Notes under the pieces: generated by a model
Told to the model about the DNA's origin: nothing
Databases searched by the model: none
What the model saw: only the letters and a program-made list of their open reading frames with translations
In this document: positions 2,634 through 64,000 of the stretch, piece after piece
Layout: the number at the start of each line of letters is the position of its first letter
Position numbering within the stretch: the first letter of the stretch is position 1
Assembly: GCA_025350815.1 (NCBI GenBank)
Contig: JANXXE010000218.1
Span: 19,574-83,573, forward strand
From: Myxococcales bacterium
GTDB taxonomy: Bacteria > Myxococcota_A > Polyangia > Fen-1088
DNA: 64,000 nucleotides
Direction: 5' to 3'
Program-made: the position numbers and the translations under genes

Positions 2634-4045
2634 CGGACAGAGTTCGACCGGGCGACAGAAGACCCCGGGTCGTGATGCTGGGCGCCGCCGGTTGGTCGGT
2701 GCGGAACTACCTTGCCAATCCTGGCTTCCAGGCTTTCTTGCGCGACAACGATGTAACGTTTTGGTCCCCCGCGTGGCAGGAACTGGCCAAACTGGACGCG
2801 TTCAAGGGGCGCGCGTCCTTTGCCCCCCTGTCCGTGTGGCAGCCGCAGGGCTGGCGCCGCCGGGGCCTGTCGTTCGTGCATGCCTATTACGGGTACAAGC
2901 AACAGAGTCGGAATCTGCTGCAGAAGCTTGAGATCTCTGCGGTGTCGGCCCGCCGAGCGGGCCTGTTGAAGGGGCTGTACGCGCGCGGCGTGCACCGCGG
3001 CGCCTGGCTTGGCAGCCAGGTTCTTCCGGTCTCAACGGTGGAAGCGGTCGAGAGGTTTCTGGCGGCCCACGCGCCCGGCCTGGTCGCCGAGTACGAGTCG
3101 CGTCTGCGGGCCAGCCAGCCCGACCTGATGTTTTCGACTACCCCGCAGGCCAATCACATGGAATGGCCGGCCGCCCTCGCCGCCAGACGCCTTGGGATCC
3201 CCGTCGTCGCCCAGATCTCATCCTGGGACAATCTCAGCTCGAAGGGGCACTTCGCCATCGAGTACCAGCGCTACCTCGCCTGGTCGGACGTGATGGTGCG
3301 TGACCTAATGCGGGATTTCGCAGTCGCCCGCGAGGACATCCAGGTCACGGGGGCACCGGGTTTTGATTTCTATTTCCAGCCGGAATTTCAGGAAAGCCGT
3401 GAGGCTTTTGCCGCGCGCCAGGGACTGGACCCCGCCCGGCCGATCATTCTTTACGCCGCCGTGACGCCCGGTCTGTTTCCGAACGAGCCGCACATGGTGG
3501 CCTTGCTACTGGACGCGATCCGAGCCGGCGACCTGCCCCGCGAGGCCCAGGTCCTGCTGCGCCTTCACCCCAAGGATCCCGGGACGCGCTGGCAGTCCCT
3601 TGACGGCCGTTACCCCGAGCTTCGCGCCTGCGTGCCCAACACCGCCGGCGATCTGCGCCAGTGGATTCCGGACGAAAGCATCATCCGCGACCAGGTGTCG
3701 TGCGTTCGGCACGGCGACGTGCATGTGAATGCCGCATCGACCATGATCATCGACGCCTCGATTCTCGACAGACCGGTGGTCAGCGTGGCGTTCGATGCCG
3801 TCGAACCCACCTTCTCGAAATACATTCGGGGCTATTACGACTACCCGCACCTGGTTCCGGTGGTCAGGGCGGGTGCCTCTCGTCTCGTGTCGACGGGGCC
3901 TGAGCTCATCGGCGAAATCGACAACTATCTACGCGATCCATCGCGTGATCGCGCGGGACGGAGGGCGATCGTCACCATGCAGACAGGGGATTGCGACGGC
4001 CAGGCGGCCGCGCGCGTCGCTGCGGCGCTGACGTCGATGCTATGA
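2600..4045 (+). CDS. GT-B-like polysaccharide biosynthesis protein, paralog B (tandem duplicate of 1185..2633)
   Basis: It has the same motif set (VRNYL, SWDNLSSKG, GVTPGLFPNEP, LRLHPKDPG, HGDVHVNAASTM) and matches the upstream gene along its whole length. The true start may be the GTG at 2630, giving a GTGA overlap, rather than the ATG at 2600. Confidence 0.5.
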   Translation: MRCEPRAGPVVTDRVRPGDRRPRVVMLGAAGWSVRNYLANPGFQAFLRDNDVTFWSPAWQELAKLDAFKGRASFAPLSVWQPQGWRRRGLSFVHAYYGYKQQSRNLLQKLEISAVSARRAGLLKGLYARGVHRGAWLGSQVLPVSTVEAVERFLAAHAPGLVAEYESRLRASQPDLMFSTTPQANHMEWPAALAARRLGIPVVAQISSWDNLSSKGHFAIEYQRYLAWSDVMVRDLMRDFAVAREDIQVTGAPGFDFYFQPEFQESREAFAARQGLDPARPIILYAAVTPGLFPNEPHMVALLLDAIRAGDLPREAQVLLRLHPKDPGTRWQSLDGRYPELRACVPNTAGDLRQWIPDESIIRDQVSCVRHGDVHVNAASTMIIDASILDRPVVSVAFDAVEPTFSKYIRGYYDYPHLVPVVRAGASRLVSTGPELIGEIDNYLRDPSRDRAGRRAIVTMQTGDCDGQAAARVAAALTSML

Positions 4046-4047
4046 AG

Positions 4048-5487
4048 TTACCTGACCGGAAGGTGCCGACGCCCCACGGACAGCGCCAGCCGGTCAGCGG
4101 GACTGGCCGGGCTCGGGGCCTTCTTGGGCGCAGCACCTGACAGCCCCCTTTGGGCCGCAACGAATCCCGCCAGCCCGATGCCGAACCACTGAATGTACGT
4201 GAATGCGACCGCGACCTGTGCCGCGGCCACCGATGCGAGGGTCAGGCCCAGCGCCAACCTGCCGAGGGGCCCCTGCTCGCGGCGAACCTGCCAAGCTCTC
4301 CTGATCGCGGCTATCAGGAAATACGCGAAGGCGAAGGCGGCGATAAAACCACCTTCGGCGGCGGTGCGCAGAAGCACGTTGTGGGCGCCCATTGCCTTTC
4401 CGCGCCATTTTGTGCCTAGATTTGCCTTCTCTGCAAAATTGTCAAACTCGGTGGCATAGGCACCCGCGCCGACACCCGTCATCGGCCTGTCGGTGACCAT
4501 GGCCCAAGCCACCTTCCACAAATCCAGCCGGCCCGTGAAGGCCGCGTCGGGGTCGTCTGCCACGCCGACTGTCCGCTCGATACCCCTTTCGATGTCGGCG
4601 TCGCTTAGGCCCTTGGCGCTGTAGAGTATTGCGGCGATGAAGGCCCCGGCAATTGCCAGCCTGACGAGGATTTGCTTCCCGCCTCCGCCGACGGCCATAC
4701 AAAGAACCACGATCAGCAGGGCCACGACGCTGCCGCGACAGACAGTCATGGTCGTTCCGATAGACAGCGCGACCGCAGAGCCTAGGTAAAGGAATCGCGG
4801 CCGCCCACGCGACGTGAGGCCCAGATACAGTGCCACCCCAGCCGGAACGGCGATGTGTATCGACGTATCGCCCCCAGCGAGCGTGGACTTCATGTTGCCC
4901 AGTCGCCCCGCATAGGACTCGGGAAGCAGCGCAACCAGGCAGGCCAACATGGCCATGCCACCCATCACCATTGCAGACAGGCCACGCCGCAGGGACGGCA
5001 GGTCGCGGAACAGGCACACTGGGCCCAGGTACGCCACCACGAGGCCCAGCATCGCGACGCTCGATGTGAAGCCCTCCCAGCGGTCAATTGACCACGTGAC
5101 ACTGACCATCATCCAAGCTGTCAGACCGAGAATCACTGCGACGGTCGAGTCCATCTTGCGCAACTGGGTGCGCAACCTGCCCATGTTGGTCAGCATTAGC
5201 AGCGCCACACCGTAAAAGAATGCGAGATATCTGGTGCTGCCCCACACGCGGATGAGAGGATCAATGGGAAGGGCCAGGAACAAGATGGCCTTGGCGCCTT
5301 CAGAATTGCGCGACAGAAGGTTCGCGAAGAAGACCAGATAGAGCGCCGCGGTCGCCCCCAATCCCACGTTGCTCCGCGACAGCCCGACCCCCTGTAAGAC
5401 CACGGCGGTGCCAAGAATCAGCAGAAAGGCCACCAACGCGCTGACCGGCGGTGTCTCGCTGGTGGCCGCGGGGCCAGCTTTTGCCAT
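4048..5487 (-). CDS. O-antigen ligase / Wzy-type polymerase family membrane protein
   Basis: About ten hydrophobic segments with a periplasmic loop. The Wzy_C-like signature ...GAHNVLLRTAAEGGFIAAFAF... is present. Confidence 0.65.
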   Translation of the reverse strand: MAKAGPAATSETPPVSALVAFLLILGTAVVLQGVGLSRSNVGLGATAALYLVFFANLLSRNSEGAKAILFLALPIDPLIRVWGSTRYLAFFYGVALLMLTNMGRLRTQLRKMDSTVAVILGLTAWMMVSVTWSIDRWEGFTSSVAMLGLVVAYLGPVCLFRDLPSLRRGLSAMVMGGMAMLACLVALLPESYAGRLGNMKSTLAGGDTSIHIAVPAGVALYLGLTSRGRPRFLYLGSAVALSIGTTMTVCRGSVVALLIVVLCMAVGGGGKQILVRLAIAGAFIAAILYSAKGLSDADIERGIERTVGVADDPDAAFTGRLDLWKVAWAMVTDRPMTGVGAGAYATEFDNFAEKANLGTKWRGKAMGAHNVLLRTAAEGGFIAAFAFAYFLIAAIRRAWQVRREQGPLGRLALGLTLASVAAAQVAVAFTYIQWFGIGLAGFVAAQRGLSGAAPKKAPSPASPADRLALSVGRRHLPVR

Positions 5488-6249
5488 TTAGGCCAATGCC
5501 CCCCGGCAAAGAACCATCAGTCCGCATCCGCCAACAGTATGGGCGGCAGCGTCGGGCGAAAGGAGAAACGCGCGGCGCCGCAGCTTGTCCACGACGCGCC
5601 CACGAGCGGTCGTCGACGGCCTCCTCCCCTCGGCCGACGAGGAGGTGTATTCCCACCCCAGGATCTCGAGGCCACAACCCCGGAGTAGGCGAAGCGCGGA
5701 CCAGCGGTGGTAGAAGTGCAGGTGCCCCACTTCTACGCGTTGCTGTTCCCGAAGGCCACGAAGCCGGGCCCAGACGCTTTCCTCCACGGGAATATGAAGG
5801 GCGATGAAGCGCGCCTTTTTGACGGCTTCGCGCAAAAAATCGTCGGGACGGACCAGGTGCTCGATCACGTCAAATAGCATCAACAGATCCGCCGCCGGGG
5901 CATCGACCAAAGTCCCCTGTATGACCCGCAACGAAGGGAACAGTCGCCCCGCAACTTCAACAGCGTCCCCAGCGGGATCTACACCCACCGCGTCCACGAT
6001 CAGGCCATGGCCAGCCAGGATCCGGATCGCTGCACTCAGAGCGGCGCCGCTGCCACAGCCGAGATCTACCAGACGGATCGCTGACGATGACCGTCCGAGA
6101 CACGCCAGAATCGTCCGCTCGTGTTCGAGAGCAACCCCGAGCTTTTCCGCTTTCCAGGGACCATCCTCTGCGTGCCAGGTCCCTCCCGTGTTGTCGAGAT
6201 AGGTCCCGTCGACGTATCCCTGCGGCAGGCAGTCGTCCACCGGCGGCAT
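5488..6249 (-). CDS. class I SAM-dependent methyltransferase
   Basis: Motif I VDLGCGSG and a DVIEH motif are present. The gene abuts the Wzy gene. Confidence 0.65.
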   Translation of the reverse strand: MPPVDDCLPQGYVDGTYLDNTGGTWHAEDGPWKAEKLGVALEHERTILACLGRSSSAIRLVDLGCGSGAALSAAIRILAGHGLIVDAVGVDPAGDAVEVAGRLFPSLRVIQGTLVDAPAADLLMLFDVIEHLVRPDDFLREAVKKARFIALHIPVEESVWARLRGLREQQRVEVGHLHFYHRWSALRLLRGCGLEILGWEYTSSSAEGRRPSTTARGRVVDKLRRRAFLLSPDAAAHTVGGCGLMVLCRGALA

Positions 6250-6259
6250 TGTGCCATCG

Positions 6260-8641
6260 TCAGGGTTTCCGCGCCAGCGACTGAAGTTGTTTCCGGGCCC
6301 TTACGACAAGGTCCGGCCGGCCGACCTCTTCTGCGTACTGGGCCAGGGCCTCGAGCGGTGACGGCCACCGGGGGTCAAGGTCGCTCGCTGTCTGAAATGC
6401 CAGAAGTGCGGCCGCGGTCTCCCCCATACCCTTCCAGATCCATGCCGCGCTAAGCTGGACCTGCGCCGCCTGCTCGGCCGTGGCCACGAGCCGCGCCCGT
6501 TCCAGGGCCTCTCGGGTTGTCTTTCTGTCTCGGGCGCCGCCAGCAGCCTGGGCGAGACCCAACCAATATCGGAGCTCGCCGGGCTTGGCGTCGGTCGCCT
6601 TGCCGATCTCCGTAACGGCGTCCTTGAAGCGCTGTTCACCAAGCGCCACACGCCCCCGCAGGAAGGCCGCTTCCGTCGGATTCACGGCGCCGAGCTCGTC
6701 CGCGACGCTTGCCAGGTCGTGCAGGTTCCCGGTGGCCTGGGCTCGCTGGGACAGGCGCATCAACGCCCTTTCGTTGCGCGGTTGCACTTCGAGCAACGCC
6801 CGATCGGCATCGTCCGCCAGGGAGCGCTTGCCCATCACGTCGAGGACCCGAACCAGCGCCTCCAGGCGTTCCCCCGGGTGGTCCGTCCCCACCGTCAGCC
6901 GGCTAAGTAGGTCGATGCGCGGATAAGAACGGACTATTTCTTGGATAATTTCATCCGGCTGCTCGGCGATTGTCGGCGCGCAGTCAAGCGCCAGCCGATA
7001 CTCGACCAGTGCCTGCTGGTGGTGTCCGGTCGCCCGGAACCACCGCGCGGTAAGCCGATGCGCTTCGAAGGAACGGGGATACAGGGTCAGGACGCGATTG
7101 ATCCAAGGTAAGGGTCGCCCGAGGGGCCGGTCACCGGCCATCAGACCGGCTTCCCGTTCGGCCGCCAGCAAGGGCAAAAAGTAGTCCGACGGATGATCCC
7201 GCAGTACCTGCTGCATCGTGCTGGTGATCCGATCGGGATCGTCCGAGCCCAGGGCCTGGCGCACATGCGCCTCCGCGGAAGGCATCTGTCTGCCCACGCC
7301 CAGGGCGAATCCAACCACGCCGATGGCCACAGACACCGCAATTAGGGCGCGCGGCATGCGGACGCCCGCGCTGGCATCACGCCGCGCGCGAGTGGCGAGG
7401 AGAGCGAGGGCGGGGATCGCGACACCTAGCACTTCGAGATTGAAGTCGAACAGGTTATGGAGAAACAGTGCCAGCATCCCACTGGCAACCGCCCAGTCGA
7501 TGGCACTGCCACGGCGAGCGAACAGGGCGCGCAGGCCATAAAGCCACCCGAGGACGAACAAGCCACCGACGATGAGACCGTAGTCCAGGACCAGCTGTAG
7601 CGGAACGTTCTCGGCATGCGTGAACGTGCGCATCATGGCCAGACGCTGATAGCGGGTATAGGCGAAGGGGAACGCCCCGCGGCCCCCGCCCACCAACGGA
7701 AAATCCGCCACGAACTGCCCCGCGGGACGCCAGATGTCGACTTTCACGGTACTGCGATCCGCAAACTCGTCGATGAAGAACCCGTTCCAGAAAATCCCCA
7801 TCAACAGCAAGGTCCCGATCAGCGCGAAGGGAACGACACTGGGGGCAACCCTCTTGTCGAGCATGCGGACCGCAAGGGGCAGCACGATCGCCACGATCAC
7901 CGCCACGGTACCGGCACGCGATCGAGCCAGCAGCCCGGCGGTCAGAATCAAGACTGTGGCCGCCGCCCACAACGCCCGCATTCTGGCGTCTCGGCTCTCC
8001 AGCGTCAGGCCCACGGCGGCAGCGCCGGTCAGCGCGAGAAATCCCGCCTGGTGATTCCCGTTGATGAAAGGACCCGCGACCTGGGTCGCACCGTGGGTCG
8101 AAAACAGGCCGTACAGGGTGTCGCTGGCGCCCGCCGCCAGGTGAAAAAGACCGACCAACGCCACACAAACGCCGGCCGCCGCCACGATCTTCAGGACCCG
8201 CTGGCGCGAACGTGCCGCGACCAAGTCACGGGCATTCTGATAGGCAAGCAGGGCAATTGCCAGCTTGGCCGCCTCAAGCCATGTGGCGGGCTGGTCCAGG
8301 CTGATGCTCATCCAGTCTGATCGCTGGCCAACCCCCAGGGGGCGCAAGGCAGCGCTTTGTGTCTCCCATGACGCGGGACTAATCAGGCGAAGCAAGCCGG
8401 GCGGCAGTGGCAACGCCTGAAAAACGGTGAACAAGCAAAGCGCGAAAAGTGCGCCCGCCAGGAGATCGAGGCCCGCCCGTTCGGACCGAGGAACCAGGTA
8501 GCGAGAGCCTGCGGTCAGCATCACGACCAACCCAACCGCGGCAATCACGGGGATATGCACCGTCCCCGCGAGCAACGGCACGGCGATGATGGTGCCGCCG
8601 ATCAGGAAGTATCGAATGGTCGAAAACGGAAGCGACATCAC
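6260..8641 (-). CDS. O-antigen ligase (Wzy_C) domain fused to C-terminal TPR-repeat domain
   Basis: The N-terminal ~430 aa are polytopic with the FTHAENVPLQLVLDYGLIVGG Wzy_C motif. The C-terminal ~350 aa are TPR-like helical repeats. Confidence 0.65.
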   Translation of the reverse strand: MMSLPFSTIRYFLIGGTIIAVPLLAGTVHIPVIAAVGLVVMLTAGSRYLVPRSERAGLDLLAGALFALCLFTVFQALPLPPGLLRLISPASWETQSAALRPLGVGQRSDWMSISLDQPATWLEAAKLAIALLAYQNARDLVAARSRQRVLKIVAAAGVCVALVGLFHLAAGASDTLYGLFSTHGATQVAGPFINGNHQAGFLALTGAAAVGLTLESRDARMRALWAAATVLILTAGLLARSRAGTVAVIVAIVLPLAVRMLDKRVAPSVVPFALIGTLLLMGIFWNGFFIDEFADRSTVKVDIWRPAGQFVADFPLVGGGRGAFPFAYTRYQRLAMMRTFTHAENVPLQLVLDYGLIVGGLFVLGWLYGLRALFARRGSAIDWAVASGMLALFLHNLFDFNLEVLGVAIPALALLATRARRDASAGVRMPRALIAVSVAIGVVGFALGVGRQMPSAEAHVRQALGSDDPDRITSTMQQVLRDHPSDYFLPLLAAEREAGLMAGDRPLGRPLPWINRVLTLYPRSFEAHRLTARWFRATGHHQQALVEYRLALDCAPTIAEQPDEIIQEIVRSYPRIDLLSRLTVGTDHPGERLEALVRVLDVMGKRSLADDADRALLEVQPRNERALMRLSQRAQATGNLHDLASVADELGAVNPTEAAFLRGRVALGEQRFKDAVTEIGKATDAKPGELRYWLGLAQAAGGARDRKTTREALERARLVATAEQAAQVQLSAAWIWKGMGETAAALLAFQTASDLDPRWPSPLEALAQYAEEVGRPDLVVRARKQLQSLARKP

Positions 8642-8695
8642 CTGACCACGCGTGCACCAACCCCAGACGTTGCGGGCGCCGCACCCGCGCGATCG

Positions 8696-55418: not shown

Positions 55419-56450
55419 CTAACGACGCAACACTTCGGCGATGACGGTGGCCGCGTGCGCGCAGGCGGCTTGGTCGACATCCAGGTGGGTGACCAGGCGC
55501 AGGCGCCGGGATCCGAACGGAAGACACAGAACGCCGCGCGCACGCAGCGCCTCGACCACAGTAGCCGCGACCGGCAAGTCCGGTCCGAGGTCGGCAAGGA
55601 CGATGTTGGTCTGGACGCCCGCAAGATCAACGGACACGCCCGGGATCGTCGCCAGCTGGCCACCGACAAAGCGCGCATTCGCATGATCGTCCGCCAGGCG
55701 CTGCACATTGTTTTCGAGCGCGTACAGGGCCGCCGCCGCAACAATGCCGGCCTGCCGCATGCCCCCGCCCAGCATCTTGCGAAACCGGTGCGCGCGGTCG
55801 ACCAGGGCCTTGCTGCCCGCAATCACCGATCCCACTGGCGCGCCCAGACCCTTCGAGAAGCACAAACTGGCCGTATCAAACTGCGCGGCCAGGGATGCCG
55901 CGCTTACCGCCTGCGCGACCGCGGCGTTCATCAAGCGCGCCCCGTCGAGGTGTAGAACCAGGCCCCGATCGCGCGCGCTGGCGGCGATCCCGGCGATAGC
56001 CTCCTGTGACCAAACGACGCCGCCGCCGCTGTTGTGGGTGTTCTCGACGCACACCAGACGCGTTGGCGCGTGTCCGTGCAGGTGCGACGGCTTGAATACG
56101 GCCTCGACATCCGCGGCCGTGAACAGTCCGCCGCGGCCGACCAGCGTGAACTGCACGCCCGCAATCGCCCCGGCCGCGCCCGACTCAAAGGCATAGTTGT
56201 GGGAGCCGGCACCGACGACGACTTCGTCCCCTGGCTGGCAGTGGATCTTGAGAGCGATTTGGTTCGCCATGCTGCCCGACGGAACGAACAGCGCCGCTTC
56301 CTTGCCCAGCAGCGCTGCCGCGCGTTCCTGCAGGGCGTTCACCGTCGGATCCTCGCCGAAGACATCATCGCCCACTTCGGCGGCGGCCATGGCGGCGCGC
56401 ATGCCCGGCGACGGTCGGGTCACGGTGTCGCTGCGCAGGTCGACGGTCAT
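55419..56450 (-). CDS. ltaE: low-specificity L-threonine aldolase
   Basis: [10 protein letters not shown]...[10 protein letters not shown]... is typical Beta_elim_lyase/threonine aldolase. Start at the MTVDLRSD Met forms an ATGA overlap with the proB stop. Confidence 0.8.
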
Positions 56451-57622
56451 ACGACGCCCATCACCAGGTTGTCCCGTGTGATGAGGGCGTCGTAGCCGCG
56501 CGAGCCCAGAATCGCATCGATGTCGTCGCTGTGGCGCCCCGCCAGCTTGCGACACGCGTCCGCGTCGTAATTGGCCAGGCCCCGGCCGTGCACCCGCCCG
56601 CTGCCGTCGCGGATCTCGACCACGTCGCCCTGGTCGAAGTTCCCGTCCACGCCGACCACGCCAATGGGCAGCAGTGATGCCTTCTGCTCGGTCAGGGCCC
56701 GCAGGGCGCCGTCATTGACGATGAGCGCGCCCTGGTGCCGGCCCGACACGGCGATGTGGCGCATGCGCGCTGGTCTCTGACCGGCCGACGGGATCAATGT
56801 TCCGATGTCCTCGCCCGCGAGGATCCGCTCGACGACGTTAACCTCGGCGCCGTTGGCTATCACGACCGTCGTCCCTTCCGTCGTGGCCAGACGAGCGGCC
56901 TCCAGTTTGCTGGTCATGCCGCCCGTGCCGCCGCTGGACCCGCCCCCCGCGCGTGCCAGTGATTCGTCGTCGACGACGGACAGTTCCGCCACGCGCGTGG
57001 CGTTTGGATCCACCGCCGGGTTCAGCGTGTACAAGCCGTTCACGTTGGTCAGCATCACCAGCACGTCGGCGTCCAGACAGACAGCGACACGGGCAGACAG
57101 ACCGTCGTTGTCGCCAAAGACCGGCGCCGTGGCGTCGGCGGCGCCCGTGGTCTGACGGCGGTGCTCGACCAGTTCTTTGACGCTGACGCTGTCGTTCTCG
57201 TTCAGCACAGGAATGGTTCCCAGCTCCAAAAGCCGCATCAACGTCGTCCGCAGGCACAGGGCGCGATCCCGATCGCCCAGATCTTCCTGGGTCAGCAGCA
57301 CCTGCGCCGCCGTCACGCCCAGTTCCGCGAAGGCCTTGGCATATACCCCCATCAGATGCCCCTGGCCGACGGCGGCGCAGGCCTGGCGCAGACCCAGCGA
57401 CCGGGGTCGTTCCCTGAGACCCAGCACGCGCATTCCCATGCCGACCGCTCCGCTCGATACAAGAACCACTTCGCGGCCACCCGCGCGGAGCCGCGCCAGA
57501 CTTTCAATGAGGCCGCGCAGGCGCTCGATCGCCAGGTCGACCCCGTCGTGAGTGACGACGTGTGTGCCCAGCTTGACGACAAGACGGTGAGCGTCAGCGA
57601 GGCTGCGGCGCGTGGGCGACAT
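56447..57622 (-). CDS. proB: glutamate 5-kinase with PUA domain
   Basis: [11 protein letters not shown]...[11 protein letters not shown]... amino-acid-kinase fold plus a C-terminal PUA domain. Confidence 0.85.
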
Positions 57623-57711
57623 GGGCAGGCTGCAATTTACCCTATTTGGGTCGCGCGGCCGCGCCCGCGCAGACCTTTGCCTCGGCCGCATCTTCATGTC
57701 GTAATGGCCGC

Positions 57712-58530
57712 ATGCTGGAAGGGAACAATTCGTTGGCTGTCATCGGCTGCGGGACCATGGGCGAGGCCATCGTCCGGGGGATATTTCGCTCGGGCAAGCT
57801 GACGCCCGCACAGGTTTTTGCCACTGATCGGCGCGTCGAGCTGGTGCGCGAGTTGGCAGAACGGCATGGCATGCGGACCAGCACCGACAACCTGGAGGCG
57901 GCCAAAGCGGCGCAAGTGGCCCTGGTTTGTCTCAAGCCCCAGCACATGGGCGCGGCGCTCGATTCCGAGGCCATGCGCGCGGCGCTGGCGGGCAAGCTGG
58001 TCATCAGTATCGCTGCGGGCGTGCGGCTGGCGCAGATCGCCGCGTGGTTGCCCGGCAGCCCGCTTATCCGCGCAATGCCCAACACGCCGGCCGTCATCGG
58101 CGAGGGCATGACCGTTCTGGCACGCGGCAAGGGCGTCACAGATGCCCAGATTGCGCTGGCTTCCGAGATCTTCAAGGCCGTGGGCCGCTGCACCGAGATC
58201 GACGAGGCCAACATGGACGTCGTCACTGCGCTGAACGGCAGCGGGCCGGCGTTCGCGTACCTGGTACTCGAAGCGCTGGCCGACGGTGCGGTCATGATGG
58301 GCTTGCGCCGGGACGCCGCGGTTTCGATTGCTGCCCAGATGCTTCAGGGGGCCGCGCGGATGGTGCTTGAAACGGGTCTGCACCCGGCCGCTTTGAAGGA
58401 CCAGGTGACCACGCCCGCCGGGTGCACCATCGCCGGACTTCTGACCCTGGAAGACGGCCGCATTCGTTCCGTCGTGGCCCGCGCCGTGGAAGAGGCGACG
58501 CGCGTCGCCGGGAAACTGGGACAAAGCTAG
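57712..58530 (+). CDS. proC: pyrroline-5-carboxylate reductase
   Basis: LAVIGCGTMGEAIVRG Rossmann motif. P5CR C-terminal dimerisation region. Divergent from proB. Confidence 0.85.
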   Translation: MLEGNNSLAVIGCGTMGEAIVRGIFRSGKLTPAQVFATDRRVELVRELAERHGMRTSTDNLEAAKAAQVALVCLKPQHMGAALDSEAMRAALAGKLVISIAAGVRLAQIAAWLPGSPLIRAMPNTPAVIGEGMTVLARGKGVTDAQIALASEIFKAVGRCTEIDEANMDVVTALNGSGPAFAYLVLEALADGAVMMGLRRDAAVSIAAQMLQGAARMVLETGLHPAALKDQVTTPAGCTIAGLLTLEDGRIRSVVARAVEEATRVAGKLGQS

Positions 58531-58542
58531 GACGCACCACAG

Positions 58543-59700
58543 GTGGCCGAGATTCGCGTTCCGATGGTTCGTCCCGGGCTGGGTGAGGTCGAGGCCGAGG
58601 CTGCCGCGCGGGTGGTTCGTTCGGGCTGGGTCGCGCAGGGGCCCGAGGTGGCGGCTTTCGAGGCCGAGCTTGCCGCCGCCGTCGGGGCCACGCACGCCGT
58701 GGCGGTCGCGAACGGGACCGTGGCGCTGGAACTTGCGCTGCGCGCGCTGGGCGTCGGGCCGGGTGACGACGTGGTCACCGTCAGCCACAGCTTCATCGCG
58801 ACCACCAACGTGGTGCATACGGTGGGGGCGCGCCCCGTCTTCGTCGACGTCGAGCGCGACACCTACGGCATGGATCCGGCGTTGCTGCCGGCCGCCCTCA
58901 CGCCGCGAACGAAGGCAGTTTTGTGTGTGCACCAGCTAGGTTTTCCCTGCGCCATAGAACGCATCGTCGCCATCGCGGACCAGCGCGGCATTCCCGTCAT
59001 AGAGGACGCCGCGTGTGCCCTTGGCACTGAGGTGCGCATGGGCGGCGCGTTCCAGCGCATCGGCCGGCCTTACGGGCGCATCGCCTGTTTTTCGTTTCAC
59101 CCACGCAAGATCATCACCACCGGGGATGGCGGCATGGTGACCACGAATGATGCGCAACTGGCGGCCCGCTGTCGGTCGCTGCGCCAGCATGCGGCGACGT
59201 CCACCGCCGAGGCGCGAGATCGCAATCCTTTGGCCAGCGAGGCTTATCTTGAACCCGCCTACAACTTTAGGCTGACCGATCTGGCGGCGGCGGTCGGGCG
59301 TCCGCAGCTGGCGCGTCTGGATCAGGCGATTTCCGAACGCCGGCGCCTGGCCGCGGTATACGCGGAAGCGCTGGCCGGGCACCCGGCGCTGGTGGCGCCC
59401 ACAGAACGCCCGGATGCCCGCTGCAACTGGCAAAGCTACCCCGTGACCGTGCGGCCGGCAGGCGCCTGGAACCAGGACCGGGTGCTCCGACACCTTCACG
59501 ACCGGGGCATCGCCAGCCGCCGGGGTCTGACCAACGCCCATCAGGAGCCGGCCTACGCCGCGCGGGGATCATGGGGCGGCGGACCGCTGCCGGTGTCCGA
59601 GTCCTTACGGGATAACACGGTGATGCTGCCCCTGTTTCACGGCATGACGGCGCCGGAAACCGACGAGGTGCTTAGCGCCCTACGCGAGATCAGGGGGTAG
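58543..59700 (+). CDS. DegT/DnrJ/EryC1/StrS family aminotransferase (no. 3)
   Basis: DegT-like throughout (EAEAAARVVRSGWVAQGPEV...; FSFHPRKIITTGDGG). Confidence 0.8.
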   Translation: MAEIRVPMVRPGLGEVEAEAAARVVRSGWVAQGPEVAAFEAELAAAVGATHAVAVANGTVALELALRALGVGPGDDVVTVSHSFIATTNVVHTVGARPVFVDVERDTYGMDPALLPAALTPRTKAVLCVHQLGFPCAIERIVAIADQRGIPVIEDAACALGTEVRMGGAFQRIGRPYGRIACFSFHPRKIITTGDGGMVTTNDAQLAARCRSLRQHAATSTAEARDRNPLASEAYLEPAYNFRLTDLAAAVGRPQLARLDQAISERRRLAAVYAEALAGHPALVAPTERPDARCNWQSYPVTVRPAGAWNQDRVLRHLHDRGIASRRGLTNAHQEPAYAARGSWGGGPLPVSESLRDNTVMLPLFHGMTAPETDEVLSALREIRG

Positions 59701-59768
59701 GCGCCCGCGGCCGTCTTTGTGTTTCCACCGACCGCTGTGTCTAAACCCTTCGAAAGGAGACACGCAAA

Positions 59769-60782
59769 ATGATTCGTCGCTTCATCTTTTCTTCGAATGC
59801 CCTTTGGACTGGTTTGTCCGCGCTGACTCTGGCCATCGGTTGCCGCCCGGCCCCGGAGGCTGCCAGCGAATTCCGCAACGCCGTTCCCCGCAAGGAAACG
59901 GTCGCCATGATCGTACCGGCCCGAGCCGGGCAGGCGCTAACGCAGGCGGTGACAGCGGAAAGGCAGGCGCAGCCGGTGCGGGGCGCCACGGCCGAGCTTT
60001 ACCAGACAACCCGCGGGGTCAGTTTGATGGTCAACGGGGGCGGCGCCGTCGTCCTCGGACTGGTGAAGGCGGTGACCCACTATCCACCGACCAATCTGAC
60101 CAACAACACCGCGGTGTGGGGCCCCTGGACCGAGGCTCTGTCGCCCAACACCTGGAAGGTCACGGTCAACCGCGTGGCCGATCATCAGTACGAGTACAGA
60201 TTCGAGGGCAAGCCAAAGACGGCCGCCGATTCTGCCTTCGTGGTGGTGCTGTCGGGAACCCATATCCCGGCGCTCGACGCCGACGGCGATCCGGTCGAGG
60301 GCTTCGGCCGCGGAAGCTTCACGCTGGACTGGGACAAGGCGCAGACGCTGCCCGAGCACGACAAGAACGTCGGCAAGACCAGCTACACCTATTCGCATAT
60401 GGGCCCGCAACAGCTGGTCGATGTCACGGCCCAGTTCCGTCAGGTCCAGGACGACAAGACCGGCAAGCTGGTGGACGTCGACTATGCGTACGCGCAGCAG
60501 CCGGGCGGCGAGGGCAACCTGGACTTCACGTTCACGGCGCCCGGGACCATGCACCCGGCCCCCGGCAAGATGGCGGTCAAGAGCCGCTGGCAGCGCTCGG
60601 GCGCGGGCCGGTCGGACGTGACGGGCAGCGGGGGCGACCTGGCCACGCCGCTACACGCCTCCGAATGCTGGGACAGCAACTTCAGCAGCAGCTACCTGCA
60701 CGCGGACTGGGATCCGACAGGCGCCTACGGCACCGAGGCCACCGACTGCGTTTTTGCCACAGCAGTCTATTCGAGCCTTTGA
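59769..60782 (+). CDS. putative lipoprotein
   Basis: Lipobox LTLAIGC after a signal peptide. Strong AAAGGAGA ribosome-binding site. No known domain. Confidence 0.5.
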   Translation: MIRRFIFSSNALWTGLSALTLAIGCRPAPEAASEFRNAVPRKETVAMIVPARAGQALTQAVTAERQAQPVRGATAELYQTTRGVSLMVNGGGAVVLGLVKAVTHYPPTNLTNNTAVWGPWTEALSPNTWKVTVNRVADHQYEYRFEGKPKTAADSAFVVVLSGTHIPALDADGDPVEGFGRGSFTLDWDKAQTLPEHDKNVGKTSYTYSHMGPQQLVDVTAQFRQVQDDKTGKLVDVDYAYAQQPGGEGNLDFTFTAPGTMHPAPGKMAVKSRWQRSGAGRSDVTGSGGDLATPLHASECWDSNFSSSYLHADWDPTGAYGTEATDCVFATAVYSSL

Positions 60783-60801
60783 TGCGCGAAGGTCGTTCCC
60801 C

Positions 60802-61368
60802 ATGAACGACGGCGGCAAGCCCCGCTTGCAGGTCATCCGCGGCGACGGCGCCAGCGGGCAACCTGCGGGCGGGGAGCCCCTGCGCGTCCTGTACGAGAAA
60901 TACGGAGCGGGCGTGTATGGACGATGCGTGTACGTGCTGAAGGATCGCACCAAGGCCGAGGACGCCATGCAGGACGTGTTCGCAAAGGCACTGGAACATT
61001 ACGCGAGCTTTCGGGCCGACGCCTCCCCGCTGACCTGGCTCATGAAGATTGCGACGCACCATTGCCTGAATGTTTTGCGCGGCGAACGCGCTGGCTGGCG
61101 CGCCCGTTTCGACCAGGAACAAAGGGCCCGGCCGGCCGGGCACGGCGGGCCGCAGGTCTTCGAGATGCGGGATCTCGTGCGGCAATTGCTCGGCCGCGTT
61201 GATCTCGAAACCCAGCTGGCGGTCGTGCATTACCACGTCGACGAGATGACCCTCGAAGAAGTCGCTGCGCTGCTCGACCGGTCGGTGCCGACCATCCGCA
61301 AGCGCCTCGATGATTTTTCGTCTCTCTGTGAAAAGGAGCGTCGCCATGACGAGTCTGCCGGCCTTTAG
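60802..61368 (+). CDS. ECF-subfamily RNA polymerase sigma factor
   Basis: Sigma70 region 2 (…YGRCVYVLKDRTKAEDAMQDVF…) and region 4 (LEEVAALLDRSVPTIRKRL). Confidence 0.8.
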   Translation: MNDGGKPRLQVIRGDGASGQPAGGEPLRVLYEKYGAGVYGRCVYVLKDRTKAEDAMQDVFAKALEHYASFRADASPLTWLMKIATHHCLNVLRGERAGWRARFDQEQRARPAGHGGPQVFEMRDLVRQLLGRVDLETQLAVVHYHVDEMTLEEVAALLDRSVPTIRKRLDDFSSLCEKERRHDESAGL

Positions 61369-62155
61369 CCCTTCCGAACCTCCCGCCCGCGGCGCCCATC
61401 CGGGTGAGCTGCGGCTGCGCCGATTTCGCGCCGGTGAGCTCGACCGCGACGAAAGCGAGTCCCTCACGCGCCACACCGCCGAATGCGGTCGCTGCCGCAG
61501 CGGGCTGCGCGCCCTGGAGGACGAACAGACACAGTTCGAGCAGGAGATCCCCTTTCCGCGTTTTGCCGGCGGTGTCGAGCGCGCACAGCGGGTGCCCCGC
61601 GCACGACCGCGGCGTCTGTGGGCCTTTGCCACCGTTGCCTTTGCTGCCGCAGCAGCGCTGCTTTTGGTGGTACGCACCAGCCCGCCCGGTGCCGGCAACA
61701 ATCGACTGAAGGGGGCCGACGATGCTGAGGGTGTCGTGCGCATCGCCGCCCCCGACGGCGGCGGTCAGCGTTCGGCCGAACAGGGTGTCGTCACCGTGCT
61801 GCTTCCCGGCGAGCTTATGCGCATCGGGTACCGCACGAGCGCGGCCGGATATCTGGCGGCGGTTTCCGTGGATGATGCGGGCAAGATCTCGCGACTTTAT
61901 CCTGCGGATGGCAAGTCGCTGGCCGTAACGGGTCAAGCGGGAACGGTTTTTCTACCCGACAGCCTGCAGCTGACGGGAGCGGGACGCGAGCGTCTGTTTC
62001 TGATCATCGCGGACCGGCCCCTTGGGGACGATGTTGCCGTGGCCGTTGGGGATGCCTGGCGCACGGGGCACGGGGATCTGGTGACCATGCCATTGCCGCA
62101 GTTGCTGGGCCCGGTACACGCACGACTATCGACCTGGCTATTTCAAAAGCCGTGA
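61346..62155 (+). CDS. anti-sigma factor (zinc-binding ZAS type, single TM)
   Basis: HTAECGRCRS matches the ZAS motif H-x3-C-x2-C. A TM helix (LWAFATVAFAAAAALLLVV) is followed by a periplasmic domain. The gene overlaps the sigma gene's 3' end and has an AAAAGGAG ribosome-binding site. Confidence 0.7.
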   Translation: MTSLPAFSPSEPPARGAHPGELRLRRFRAGELDRDESESLTRHTAECGRCRSGLRALEDEQTQFEQEIPFPRFAGGVERAQRVPRARPRRLWAFATVAFAAAAALLLVVRTSPPGAGNNRLKGADDAEGVVRIAAPDGGGQRSAEQGVVTVLLPGELMRIGYRTSAAGYLAAVSVDDAGKISRLYPADGKSLAVTGQAGTVFLPDSLQLTGAGRERLFLIIADRPLGDDVAVAVGDAWRTGHGDLVTMPLPQLLGPVHARLSTWLFQKP

Positions 62156-63783
62156 AGGCGCCGCGTCTCATGCTTGGTCCTTCGCGGGCGGCTCTTGTCG
62201 CCGCAATGGCGATGTGCGGGCTATTCGCTTCGCGCGCCCGGCAGACGGCCCTTGCGGCCACGGGACACCGACGGTTCGCGCTGGTTGTTGGCAACAATTC
62301 CGGGGGCGATGACACGCGACCGCTGCTGTACGCCACGCAGGACGCCCGCCGGATCCATTCACTGCTCACGGGCGCCGGCGGCGTCCATCCCGACGACGCA
62401 ATTCTGTTGCTCGACGGAACGTCCGACGAATTTTGGCGGGCACTGGGCGCGGTCGAGGCGAAAGTCGCGCACGCGGGGCAAGCCGGCGAGCGCACGGCGC
62501 TGGTCGTTTACTACTCGGGTCACGCGAAGGACGGTGTCCTGCGTCTGGGGCGAACCCACGTTCCCATGGCGGACGTCAAGGCGCATCTGACGGCGGCACC
62601 CGCAGACGTGCGGATTGGCATCTTCGATTCGTGTCGCTCAGGCGTGGTGACGCGCACAAAAGGGGCACGCCGCGCTCCCGCCTTCGAGGTCGAGGCCAAC
62701 AGCGGCGCCGAGACCCGCGGCGTGGTCATCCTGACATCCAGCGGCTTCGACGAGGATTCGCAAGAGGCCGACAGCATCGGGGGCAGTTACTTTTCGCACC
62801 ATCTGGTCAGCGGCCTGCGCGGTGACGCCGACCGTTCGGGCGACAAACGCGTCACCCTGTCCGAGGCCTATGCCTACGCCTACGCGCACACCGTCGCTGA
62901 CACGGCCGACAGCGCCGCCGGCGCCCAGCACCCGACCTTCAGCTACGATCTGAAGGGAAACGGCGATCTGGTCCTGACCGACATGGGCAGCTGGCGCGAG
63001 GGATTGGTTGTCCCCGCAGCGGCGCCGGCAGGAACCTACTTCGTCGTCGACAAAGACGTGATCGTCGCCGAGATCGTGAAGACCACGAACGTCGAGCGGC
63101 AGATCGCCGTCGGCCCCGGCCGCTACATGATCAAACGGCGCCTCGCGGATCGTCTTCGTATCGGCGAGGTGCGGATCAGCAGTGGACAGCTTCTTTCCCT
63201 TGACGAGACAACCCTGCACGACGCCCCGTTTTCAGACGATCCCGTGAAAGGGATCTCGCGCGAGCCAACGTCGCGCTTCAGCCTGGGCGTGGCGGGCAGC
63301 CTGCAAGCCTTTTTCGACGCCCCGACGCGCGACGGGTTGTTTCCACCCGCCGGTCTCGTCGGAGCAGAGCTGCTGGTGCGCGACTTCTTTCGGCGGAACT
63401 GGGTCTGGGGCGCCGATCTGGCGTTCGGGGGAACCCGCGGCACTTTGCTGCGCCCCACTATTACCCTGCCCTTTCGCTTCAGCGAGGTGGCGCTTGGCTC
63501 ATCGCTGTTTGCCGAATGGCCGTCGGCCAGTGGGCGCGTCGTTCCGTTCTTCGGAGCGCGGGTGGCGTTCATGTTCATGAGCCGCACCTTTGAAGGCAGC
63601 GCCATTCCCGCGCAGACCTTTTCGACGTTTTCCCCGGGATTGCTTGGGGGCGGCCGCTACCGCTTCAGCGACGGCGTCTCCGCCGTGGCGCGGGCGCGCG
63701 TCCACTACCTGCTGTACAACATCGACGAGAACCGCTCGCTTGGATACTGGGAACTGGCACTGGCGATGGCCTATGAATTCTAG
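62152..63783 (+). CDS. caspase-like (peptidase C14) domain protein with C-terminal beta-barrel-like domain
   Basis: Signal peptide, then FALVVGNNSGGDDTRPLLYATQDARRI…YYSGHA (His)…FDSCRSG (Cys), the caspase catalytic dyad layout. The last ~200 aa are alternating amphipathic strands ending …LAMAYEF. Confidence 0.65.
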   Translation: MKAPRLMLGPSRAALVAAMAMCGLFASRARQTALAATGHRRFALVVGNNSGGDDTRPLLYATQDARRIHSLLTGAGGVHPDDAILLLDGTSDEFWRALGAVEAKVAHAGQAGERTALVVYYSGHAKDGVLRLGRTHVPMADVKAHLTAAPADVRIGIFDSCRSGVVTRTKGARRAPAFEVEANSGAETRGVVILTSSGFDEDSQEADSIGGSYFSHHLVSGLRGDADRSGDKRVTLSEAYAYAYAHTVADTADSAAGAQHPTFSYDLKGNGDLVLTDMGSWREGLVVPAAAPAGTYFVVDKDVIVAEIVKTTNVERQIAVGPGRYMIKRRLADRLRIGEVRISSGQLLSLDETTLHDAPFSDDPVKGISREPTSRFSLGVAGSLQAFFDAPTRDGLFPPAGLVGAELLVRDFFRRNWVWGADLAFGGTRGTLLRPTITLPFRFSEVALGSSLFAEWPSASGRVVPFFGARVAFMFMSRTFEGSAIPAQTFSTFSPGLLGGGRYRFSDGVSAVARARVHYLLYNIDENRSLGYWELALAMAYEF

Positions 63784-63793
63784 GAGACGCGGG

Positions 63794-64000
63794 ATGAAGG
63801 GCATTACACGTGTGTGGTTGGCAACGGCGTTGCTGGGCGCCTGCGGCGGCAATTATTCGAATGAAGATTTGGATTTCCAGGCCGCCCTGCCCGAACACGA
63901 TGATCTGGTGGCCAAGCTGCCCGCGCAGGCCCTGACCACCGCCGATTCCGCCGAGTACTACCGAACCACCCGCGACGTGGTGAAGATCTTCAACACCGTT
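63794..64000 (+). CDS. putative lipoprotein (3'-truncated at window edge)
   Basis: GGAG ribosome-binding site. MKGITRVWLATALLGACGG lipobox. The open frame runs to the end of the window. Confidence 0.5.
   Translation, partial: MKGITRVWLATALLGACGGNYSNEDLDFQAALPEHDDLVAKLPAQALTTADSAEYYRTTRDVVKIFNTV

Follow-up and report, generated by a model that had tools for sequence, protein, structure and literature searches.

What is a secreted caspase-family protease, ending in what looks like an outer-membrane beta-barrel, doing in one operon with a sigma factor and its membrane-bound anti-sigma factor? The question is raised by the last few kilobases of the 64,000-nucleotide stretch of Myxococcales bacterium DNA analysed here (GenBank assembly GCA_025350815.1, contig JANXXE010000218.1, positions 19,574 to 83,573; "the window" below), where a plus-strand cassette runs from position 59,715 to the window end. 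The unit consists of five genes -- lipoprotein A, a sigma factor of the extracytoplasmic function (ECF) type, a single-pass anti-sigma factor, the protease and lipoprotein B -- together with a conserved promoter-like element, and not of four genes as in the original prediction. It is probably a self-induced envelope signalling operon of the Myxococcota. The answer that we tentatively prefer for the protease is that, tethered to the outer membrane, it cleaves or docks onto the anti-sigma factor, which would release the sigma factor.

Conservation of the cassette and of its promoter-like element

A scan for the locus, with one genome per species, gave 268 related stretches, and the six-frame open reading frames (ORFs) of the best 80 were searched with the five window proteins. 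The complete order lipoprotein A, sigma, anti-sigma, protease, lipoprotein B, whose occurrence in other genomes had been proposed as a check on the original prediction, was found in 71 of these 80 loci; the other nine are cut by contig ends and are consistent with it, and it is violated in none. Gaps between the sigma, anti-sigma and protease genes are typically zero or negative, with medians of about -4 and 0 nt. Such an arrangement is far beyond chance. The hosts of the best 80 include Myxococcus, Corallococcus, Pyxidicoccus, Archangium, Citreicoccus and many uncultured Polyangia and other Myxococcota, the named members being labelled as Myxococcota or "Deltaproteobacteria bacterium", and public records annotate the protease with its barrel as "caspase family protein" only. 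The gene order and the promoter-like element are both conserved phylum-wide in the Myxococcota. (One record, L057, BNCN01000006.1, is labelled "Comamonas sp. KCTC 72670" and has a cassette layout nearly identical to that of the Myxococcus loci; the otherwise myxobacterial DdvA-like proteins also include one from Comamonas (PMC11506125), and L057 may come from a myxobacterial assembly that was mislabelled or contaminated.)

More divergent members were sought with HMMER, using only the sandwich-plus-barrel half of the protease, among 1.84 billion cluster representatives. Only 183 of these match, which bears out the earlier view of the architecture as unusual. Full-length matches are about 480-570 amino acids (aa) long, with the match beginning around residue 210-290; eight of ten tested have an N-terminal Peptidase_C14 domain, including some that are 27-32% identical, while Pfam matched nothing in the two others, which are shorter. 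Sigma, anti-sigma and protease genes are adjacent in both of the two divergent members that were checked on their contigs, and members with 27-29% identity in the C-terminal half still hold these three genes together. All five genes are retained in L083 (GCA_016931625.1, "Deltaproteobacteria bacterium", 3248-8681), from a genome of 38.8% G+C, which also has the promoter-like element (TTTTCGTTAATTTCTTTTTGCCGTGTCTAT); its anti-sigma factor is without the HxxxCxxC cysteines, so zinc binding does not seem essential to the module. At a further locus, L082 (1-1949), a lipoprotein A/B-like gene is divergent from the sigma gene, and the intergenic region carries one promoter-like copy on each strand, suggesting that the two units form one regulon.

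The family consensus of this element is TTTCTGTTTTC-N9-11-GC(C/T)GTGTC(C/T)AT. In the 250 nt 5' of lipoprotein A at 71 loci, an unbiased count of 5-mer/4-mer pairs picked out TTTCT-N16/17-GTGT(C) in 42 of the upstream regions, against at most 6 in shuffled sequences, and a looser pattern matches 64 of the 71, 35-60 nt before the start codon. When 935 kb of flanking sequence was searched on both strands with the regular expression, 84 of the 94 matches lay just 5' of lipoprotein A. No sigma-70-type promoter was found on the plus strand across the operon, and no convincing internal sigma-70 promoter or terminator that would split it. Autoregulation is usual among ECF systems, and the element is probably the promoter of the operon, recognised by its own sigma factor.

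A promoter in front of all five genes also suits another explanation, possible but doubtful in our estimate, in which the sigma/anti-sigma pair senses envelope stress by other means and the protease and lipoproteins are its induced effectors, acting for example in periplasmic protein clearance or outer-membrane remodelling while the anti-sigma factor is left untouched. Genes co-transcribed with an ECF sigma factor are commonly its regulon. What such an output role leaves unexplained at this level is that sigma, anti-sigma and protease remain adjacent even where lipoprotein A is found on the other strand.

The two lipoproteins frame the operon. The first had been noted before as a lipoprotein gene, and this holds: its lipobox (LAIGC) has a cysteine, Cys25, that is invariant in alignments of 33 and of 56 homologues; C300 and C327 are invariant too. 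The model of lipoprotein A (predicted local distance difference test score, pLDDT, 88) consists of a poorly modelled tether, a long helix (76-103) and a 13-strand antiparallel meander sheet; the protein has no match in Pfam, NCBIfam or PADLOC. Lipoprotein B, cut by the window end, can be followed on the same contig in the public assembly (L001, 4523-5434), where it is 303 aa long with lipobox LLGAC. The two are paralogues (phmmer of B against A, E ~1e-18) and neither belongs to a Pfam family; the A3 profile matches window ORF 63581-64000. They seem to form a fold family of their own, so far unclassified and confined to this operon, and may gate or relay its signal.

The protease, its spacer and its barrel

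A search of 5.8 billion proteins returned more than 1,400 relatives of the protease, and the best 120, which were looked at, are nearly all full-length and about 60% identical, those with names coming from Polyangia, Myxococcales or "Deltaproteobacteria". The original prediction of a secreted C14 protein agrees with the profile search: PF00656 (Peptidase_C14) matches residues 40-265 with 40 bits against a cut-off of 21.4, and matches all 55 homologues aligned. All 55 also have a hydrophobic N-terminus followed by small residues, and the AlphaFold2 model has a signal helix, of low confidence, at residues 11-36. Anchoring of the protease as a lipoprotein through Cys22 (AMAMC) was considered and rejected, the lipobox being poor and the cysteine not conserved in the aligned N-termini. 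The catalytic dyad is intact, as had been read from YYSGHA and FDSCRSG, with H124 and C161 invariant in the 55-sequence alignment, and the domain has the caspase-hemoglobinase fold.

Three further residues that are invariant in this alignment, D64, S122 and D159, are candidates for the S1 pocket. They correspond to Asp95, Ser156 and Asp211 of TbMCA2, which form an acidic S1 pocket for basic residues (PMC4357240, PMC6426788), and in the HMMER alignment fungal metacaspase-1 has the same DSCxSG and DA motifs. From the match to the TbMCA2 pocket, a metacaspase/orthocaspase-type enzyme that cleaves after Arg or Lys, and not after Asp, is predicted. The "caspase-like" label given earlier is therefore better replaced by C14B, metacaspase/orthocaspase-like, with a predicted Arg/Lys specificity. 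Past the catalytic Cys lies a disordered loop (residues 165-188, pLDDT < 50) with the conserved motif TR[TS]KGAR[KR]APAF; the loop in this position is the usual place of self-processing in this enzyme family.

The AlphaFold2 model of the whole protein has a mean pLDDT of 82. Between the catalytic domain and the barrel it places a beta-sandwich, for which 24 of the 55 homologues show weak CysA_C_terminal matches. The barrel that follows has eight long strands (375-542), with block-mean pLDDT > 90 for most of them and short loops; it is a closed, antiparallel barrel of eight transmembrane strands, of the type of OmpA, NspA and OmpW. PF13505 (OMP_b-brl) does not match the window protein itself, but it matches 13 of the 55 homologues (best E 3.8e-6) and is precomputed on one homologue; matches in distant members are below cut-off. 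The C-terminus is thus a barrel, as originally proposed, and not a soluble sandwich. The terminal Phe that had been taken as one of its marks is present in the window but is replaced by Pro or Leu in many orthologues, while the Tyr at position -3 never varies. In Myxococcus and Corallococcus, many orthologues (L026, L032, L039 and others) end in YQP, YEP or YDL, and the barrel insertion signal in these genera may dispense with a terminal aromatic residue. For surface loops of a small barrel, conservation is unusually high in FFDAPTRDGLFP and NIDENRSLGYW, two segments between strands that are predicted to point outwards; they could form a barrel plug, or a contact site for a ligand or lipopolysaccharide.

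In all even-stranded bacterial barrels known, N- and C-terminus alike lie on the periplasmic side, and the barrels known to display an attached domain at the surface, those of autotransporters and intimins, have at least 12 strands. The present protein has neither the 12 or more strands nor the threaded passenger of an autotransporter or inverse autotransporter. With eight strands, short loops and no export pore, the caspase domain and spacer are expected in the periplasm and not at the cell surface, and we infer that the barrel is an outer-membrane anchor from which the N-terminal caspase faces the periplasm.

This bears directly on the roles first proposed for the protein, namely a regulated cell-surface protease, or an effector of programmed cell death or developmental lysis located on the outer membrane, which we now consider highly improbable. 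Secretion, the barrel anchor and the intact dyad are as such roles would have them, and myxobacteria do undergo developmental lysis, in which a 2012 survey speculated that metacaspases might be involved (PMC3501461). Small barrels like those of OmpA, NspA and OmpW are not, however, those used for display, and a periplasmic N-terminal domain makes a cell-surface protease unlikely. Nothing was found that points to a death or lysis role: the operon has no lysis-related gene, and the cassette extends to lineages without a known life cycle, namely many uncultured Polyangia and one low-GC lineage. A periplasmic protease held at the outer membrane is, on the other hand, distant from the membrane-proximal site of the anti-sigma factor, which speaks for the output role described above.

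The anti-sigma factor and its possible cleavage

The sigma factor is recognised by Sigma70_r2 (50.7 bits, cut-off 24; E 1.6e-13) and by TIGR02937 (57.8 bits, cut-off 42.9), both above their cut-offs, and by Sigma70_r4_2 slightly below it (24.7 bits against 25.7; E 1.8e-5). Having regions 2 and 4 only, together with the profile match, it qualifies as an ECF sigma factor (sigma-70 group 4), as was originally stated. The zinc-motif transmembrane anti-sigma factor was also correctly recognised: HTAECGRC, an HxxxCxxC motif found in 74 of 76 orthologues, lies in an N-terminal domain that is followed by one transmembrane helix, the layout of zinc-binding anti-sigma (ZAS) class I. For zf-HC2 the window protein scores 15 bits (cut-off 22.2), and E < 0.01 is reached in 16 of 34 orthologues, all of them under the Pfam cut-off; matches to solved structures are weak (the ChrR and DdvA anti-sigma domains, E 0.1-0.3). 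On the other side of the membrane, the window protein scores 20.3 bits for DUF4384 (PF14326; cut-off 27), and 25 of 34 orthologues match over the same region with E < 0.01 (best 8.7e-6), as do two distant members, all sub-threshold. The sigma factor is thus paired with a single-pass anti-sigma factor whose sequence predicts a cytoplasmic, sigma-binding HxxxCxxC domain and a periplasmic DUF4384-like domain.

It is this periplasmic half that suggests a partner. Cyanobacterial orthocaspases carry DUF4384, in 23 proteins, as one of their most frequent fused accessory domains (PMC8283722; also PMC7475262, PMC6426788), and it has been described as frequently joined to protease domains; some C-terminal domains of Csx30, a sigma-binding substrate of the caspase-like Csx29, are also DUF4384 (bioRxiv 10.1101/2022.08.17.504292). 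That a domain found fused to caspases in other proteins should here lie beside one suggests direct contact between the two. The ECF classification paper, as far as its main text goes, mentions no caspase or DUF4384 context. The idea that the beta-sandwich of the protease is itself a DUF4384 copy that pairs with the anti-sigma factor was tried and rejected, since a comparison of the protease and anti-sigma profiles found them dissimilar (probability 0.3%). That dissimilarity also fits the output role of the protease, which for its part leaves unexplained why the anti-sigma factor should carry a type of domain otherwise fused to caspases (PMC8283722).

Immediately after the transmembrane helix, the 34 aligned orthologues share N-R-x-K-G, with K122 and G123 nearly invariant, and the pattern [ND]-x-x-[KR]-G is found at this juxtamembrane position in 65 of 76 anti-sigma factors. 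R-x-K-G thus occurs twice in the operon, in the NRxKG of the anti-sigma linker and in the post-Cys loop of the protease (TRTKGARRAPAF), and both copies are conserved across orthologues. This is what would be expected if both were substrates of an Arg/Lys-specific enzyme, and it is another feature on which the output role is silent. About 67 of the 76 anti-sigma orthologues end in xKP. This Lys-Pro tail might, speculatively, be an uncleavable pseudo-substrate or docking tail that perhaps restrains the protease at rest.

Together, the DUF4384-like domain, the shared R-x-K-G and the published cases of caspase-family control of sigma factors suggest that the protease may act on the anti-sigma factor. 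In the sequence of events that we propose, a signal in the envelope, perhaps passed on or gated by the two lipoproteins, would lead the protease to engage the DUF4384-like domain; acting as site-1 protease, it would cut the anti-sigma factor within the juxtamembrane R-x-K-G, between K and G; a site-2 protease of the RseP type would finish the degradation, as has been shown for DdvA in M. xanthus (PMC11506125); and the freed sigma factor would turn to the operon's own promoter. The R-x-K-G of the post-Cys loop would be the site at which the protease activates itself. The protease, earlier read as controlled by the sigma/anti-sigma pair, may thus act on the anti-sigma factor and not simply be a regulated target.

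Several points weigh against this proposal. The evidence that the protease contacts or cleaves the anti-sigma factor is circumstantial; every DUF4384 and zf-HC2 match is below the Pfam gathering score, and the dependence of the promoter-like element on the operon's sigma factor is only inferred. Co-transcription is equally expected if the protease is a mere target of the sigma factor, and the Lys-Pro tail could mean that the anti-sigma factor inhibits or docks the protease instead of being cut by it. For the lipoproteins no sequence or structural relative was found, solved structures having been searched. Finally, the protease is at the outer membrane and its site in the anti-sigma factor is by the inner membrane, far apart, so that the spacer and linkers must extend across the periplasm and the peptidoglycan. 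In a more specific version, which we consider unlikely, the system would be a trans-envelope proteolytic sensor: the Arg/Lys-specific protease, on the inner side of the outer membrane, would meet the R-x-K-G and Lys-Pro segments only when the geometry or integrity of the envelope changes or when the two half-barrel-like lipoproteins let it go, proximity of the two membranes thus being converted into sigma activation.

Genomic setting and relation to known systems

The coordinates of the cassette and of the features discussed are collected in Table 1. The sigma start is placed at ATG 60802 and not at TTG 60754, in agreement with the orthologues and with the database gene call in L001 (188 aa). 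For the protease, the public gene call is ATG 62170, 14 nt past the anti-sigma stop; the 4-nt overlap (GTGA) of the original prediction is true only with GTG 62152 as start, and is lost with the ATG. Profiles of all four complete proteins match only this locus, and the window holds no second copy of the cassette. Upstream lie proB (minus strand), proC and a gene for a DegT-type aminotransferase (56447-59700). Taken from their longest starts, the annotated proB and proC show a head-to-head overlap of about 50 nt, so at least one of them probably starts later. Downstream, L001 5444-10669 holds fpg, ksgA and tsaD (convergent, housekeeping) and a PatA_N response regulator.

Table 1. Positions of the genes, domains and motifs of the cassette in the window.
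Feature	Position	Strand	Remarks
Bipartite promoter-like element	59715-59744	+	CTTTGTGTTTCC-N9-CTGTGTCTAA; one-base variant of consensus
Ribosome-binding site AAGGAG	59754-59759	+	downstream of promoter-like element
Lipoprotein A	59769-60782	+	337 aa; lipobox LAIGC
ECF-type sigma factor	60802-61368	+	188 aa; regions 2 and 4 only
Single-pass anti-sigma factor	61346-62155	+	269 aa; 23-nt overlap with sigma gene; preceded by AAGGAG
Anti-sigma HxxxCxxC (HTAECGRC)	61472-61495	+	N-terminal cytoplasmic domain (predicted)
Anti-sigma transmembrane helix	61616-61672	+	19 residues
Anti-sigma juxtamembrane R-L-K-G	61703-61714	+	from alignment of orthologues
Anti-sigma DUF4384-like periplasmic domain	61805-62008	+	sub-threshold profile matches
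Anti-sigma C-terminal Lys-Pro	62147-62152	+	invariant in alignment
Secreted Peptidase_C14 protein	62152/62170-63783	+	543 aa (GTG 62152) or 537 aa (ATG 62170)
Signal peptide	62152-62259	+	likely cleavage near ALA/AT
Peptidase_C14 catalytic domain	62266-62946	+	residues 39-260 in model, 40-265 by Pfam
His124 (YYSGHA)	62521-62523	+	codon verified; invariant in 55 sequences
Cys161 (FDSCRSG)	62632-62634	+	codon verified; invariant in 55 sequences
Loop past catalytic Cys, RTKGARRAPAF	62653-62685	+	disordered
Beta-sandwich spacer	62971-63225	+	residues 274-358; followed by low-confidence linker 359-374
8-stranded outer-membrane beta-barrel	63274-63783	+	residues 375-543; ends Y-E-F
Conserved inter-strand segment FFDAPTRDGLFP	63310-63345	+	residues 387-398
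Conserved inter-strand segment NIDENRSLGYW	63718-63750	+	residues 523-533
Lipoprotein B (start only)	63794-64000	+	cut by window end; ATG ten bases past protease stop

A close parallel within the phylum is DdvS/DdvA of M. xanthus (PMC11506125, PMC6061681), likewise an ECF sigma factor with a single-pass zinc-motif anti-sigma factor, in which a periplasmic caspase-fold protease with a His/Cys dyad has been proposed to make the site-1 cut before RseP. In DdvA, however, the protease is a TPR-CHAT unit fused to the anti-sigma factor, in a protein of about 900 residues that acts within a dimer, whereas here protease and anti-sigma factor are two proteins, the former a C14 enzyme at the outer membrane and the latter with a small DUF4384-like domain. 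No CHAT or TPR domain was found by Pfam in any of the five proteins, which thus differ from the TPR-CHAT and craspase systems, and the only link to DdvA is a weak similarity of the N-terminal anti-sigma domain. DdvA also controls an island of CBASS (cyclic oligonucleotide-based antiphage signalling) and CRISPR (clustered regularly interspaced short palindromic repeats) genes, while no defence genes are present at this locus.

The comparison with DdvA nevertheless raises the question of whether the cassette is an invader-sensing switch of that kind, its protease detecting a phage, competitor or prey protein and its sigma factor driving a wider defence or predation regulon at other places in the genome. 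Precedent comes from DdvA itself, a Myxococcus anti-sigma factor which has a caspase-fold CHAT domain in the periplasm and controls a defence island (PMC11506125), and from the caspase-like control of sigma factors in type III CRISPR systems (bioRxiv 10.1101/2022.08.17.504292, 10.1101/2023.06.23.546230); the protease also has a weak NCBIfam match to the EACC1-associated caspase type (59 bits, cut-off 140). We rate this as quite improbable. PADLOC gave no match for any of the five proteins (E <= 0.01), the genes on either side have housekeeping functions, the cassette recurs across the phylum as one fixed unit and not as a variable island, and in the 935 kb of flanking sequence the promoter-like motif is essentially confined to this operon. 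A defence island was rejected as the main explanation on the first two of these grounds.

Two cytoplasmic systems join caspase-family enzymes to sigma factors. In the type III-E craspase (bioRxiv 10.1101/2022.08.17.504292), the caspase-family Csx29 cuts the sigma-binding Csx30 at a linker, and the C-termini of some Csx30 proteins belong to DUF4384, the family that the present anti-sigma factor matches; that system differs in being cytoplasmic, RNA-guided and CRISPR-associated, with CHAT in place of C14 and neither barrel nor lipoproteins. In Haliangium ochraceum, the myxobacterial Peptidase_C14 enzyme PCaspase, which has a dedicated inhibitor, cleaves the putative sigma factor PCc-sigma (bioRxiv 10.1101/2023.06.23.546230); that system is likewise cytoplasmic; a SAVED-CHAT filament activates it, its substrates are broad and the outcome is abortive infection, and it has neither a transmembrane anti-sigma factor nor a barrel. 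The logic of the proposed pathway, from an outer-membrane event by way of site-1 and site-2 proteolysis to the release of an autoregulated ECF sigma factor, is that of RseA/DegS/RseP in the sigma-E system and of FecA-FecR-FecI. There, however, the site-1 step falls to serine proteases (DegS, Prc) or to self-cleavage, with no caspase fold and no 8-stranded tether, and the outer-membrane partner of the Fec system is a 22-stranded TonB-dependent transducer. In outline the present system resembles all of these, but it belongs to none: CHAT and TPR domains, CRISPR and CBASS genes, a TonB-dependent transducer and PADLOC matches are all absent.

Its barrel belongs with the small 8-stranded ones of OmpA (N-domain), NspA, OmpW and OprF (N-domain). 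In OmpA and OprF a soluble peptidoglycan-binding domain is C-terminal to the barrel, whereas here the protease and spacer are N-terminal, an order more like that of BamA and LptD.

The co-occurrence of metacaspases and sigma factors in these bacteria has been reported before. According to the survey of Asplund-Samuelsson et al. (2012, PMC3501461), four of the five metacaspase genes of M. xanthus are in predicted operons with genes of the sigma-70 family, and Anaeromyxobacter, Haliangium and Sorangium have the same layout; very probably, the locus analysed here is an operon of this set. In the passages considered, the survey reports the co-occurrence only, and no anti-sigma factor, DUF4384-like domain, barrel, lipoproteins, promoter or mechanism. 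Our search of the literature found no experimental work on any orthologue, no corresponding M. xanthus locus tag and, for metacaspases with anti-sigma factors, only the CRISPR-linked PCaspase work. The separate C14 enzyme with its 8-stranded barrel anchor, its DUF4384-like anti-sigma partner, the flanking pair of lipoproteins and the promoter element all appear to be undescribed.

Bacterial caspase homologues are numerous, and the substrate or role is known for very few; ECF anti-sigma factors, for their part, are often without an identified site-1 protease. The cassette is a conserved and genetically tractable case in which the two may meet, with orthologues in cultured Myxococcus, Corallococcus and Archangium, and the locus also defines an uncharacterised lipoprotein family without a relative among solved structures. 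Cleavage of the anti-sigma factor by the protease, if it occurs, would carry the link between the caspase fold and sigma factors beyond the cytoplasm and beyond fused proteins, to a periplasmic relay between two membranes; it would also give the widespread DUF4384 a function, as a module to which caspases dock or which they cut. Should the trans-envelope sensor also prove true, the enzyme would be the first bacterial caspase-family periplasmic site-1 protease to act in trans.

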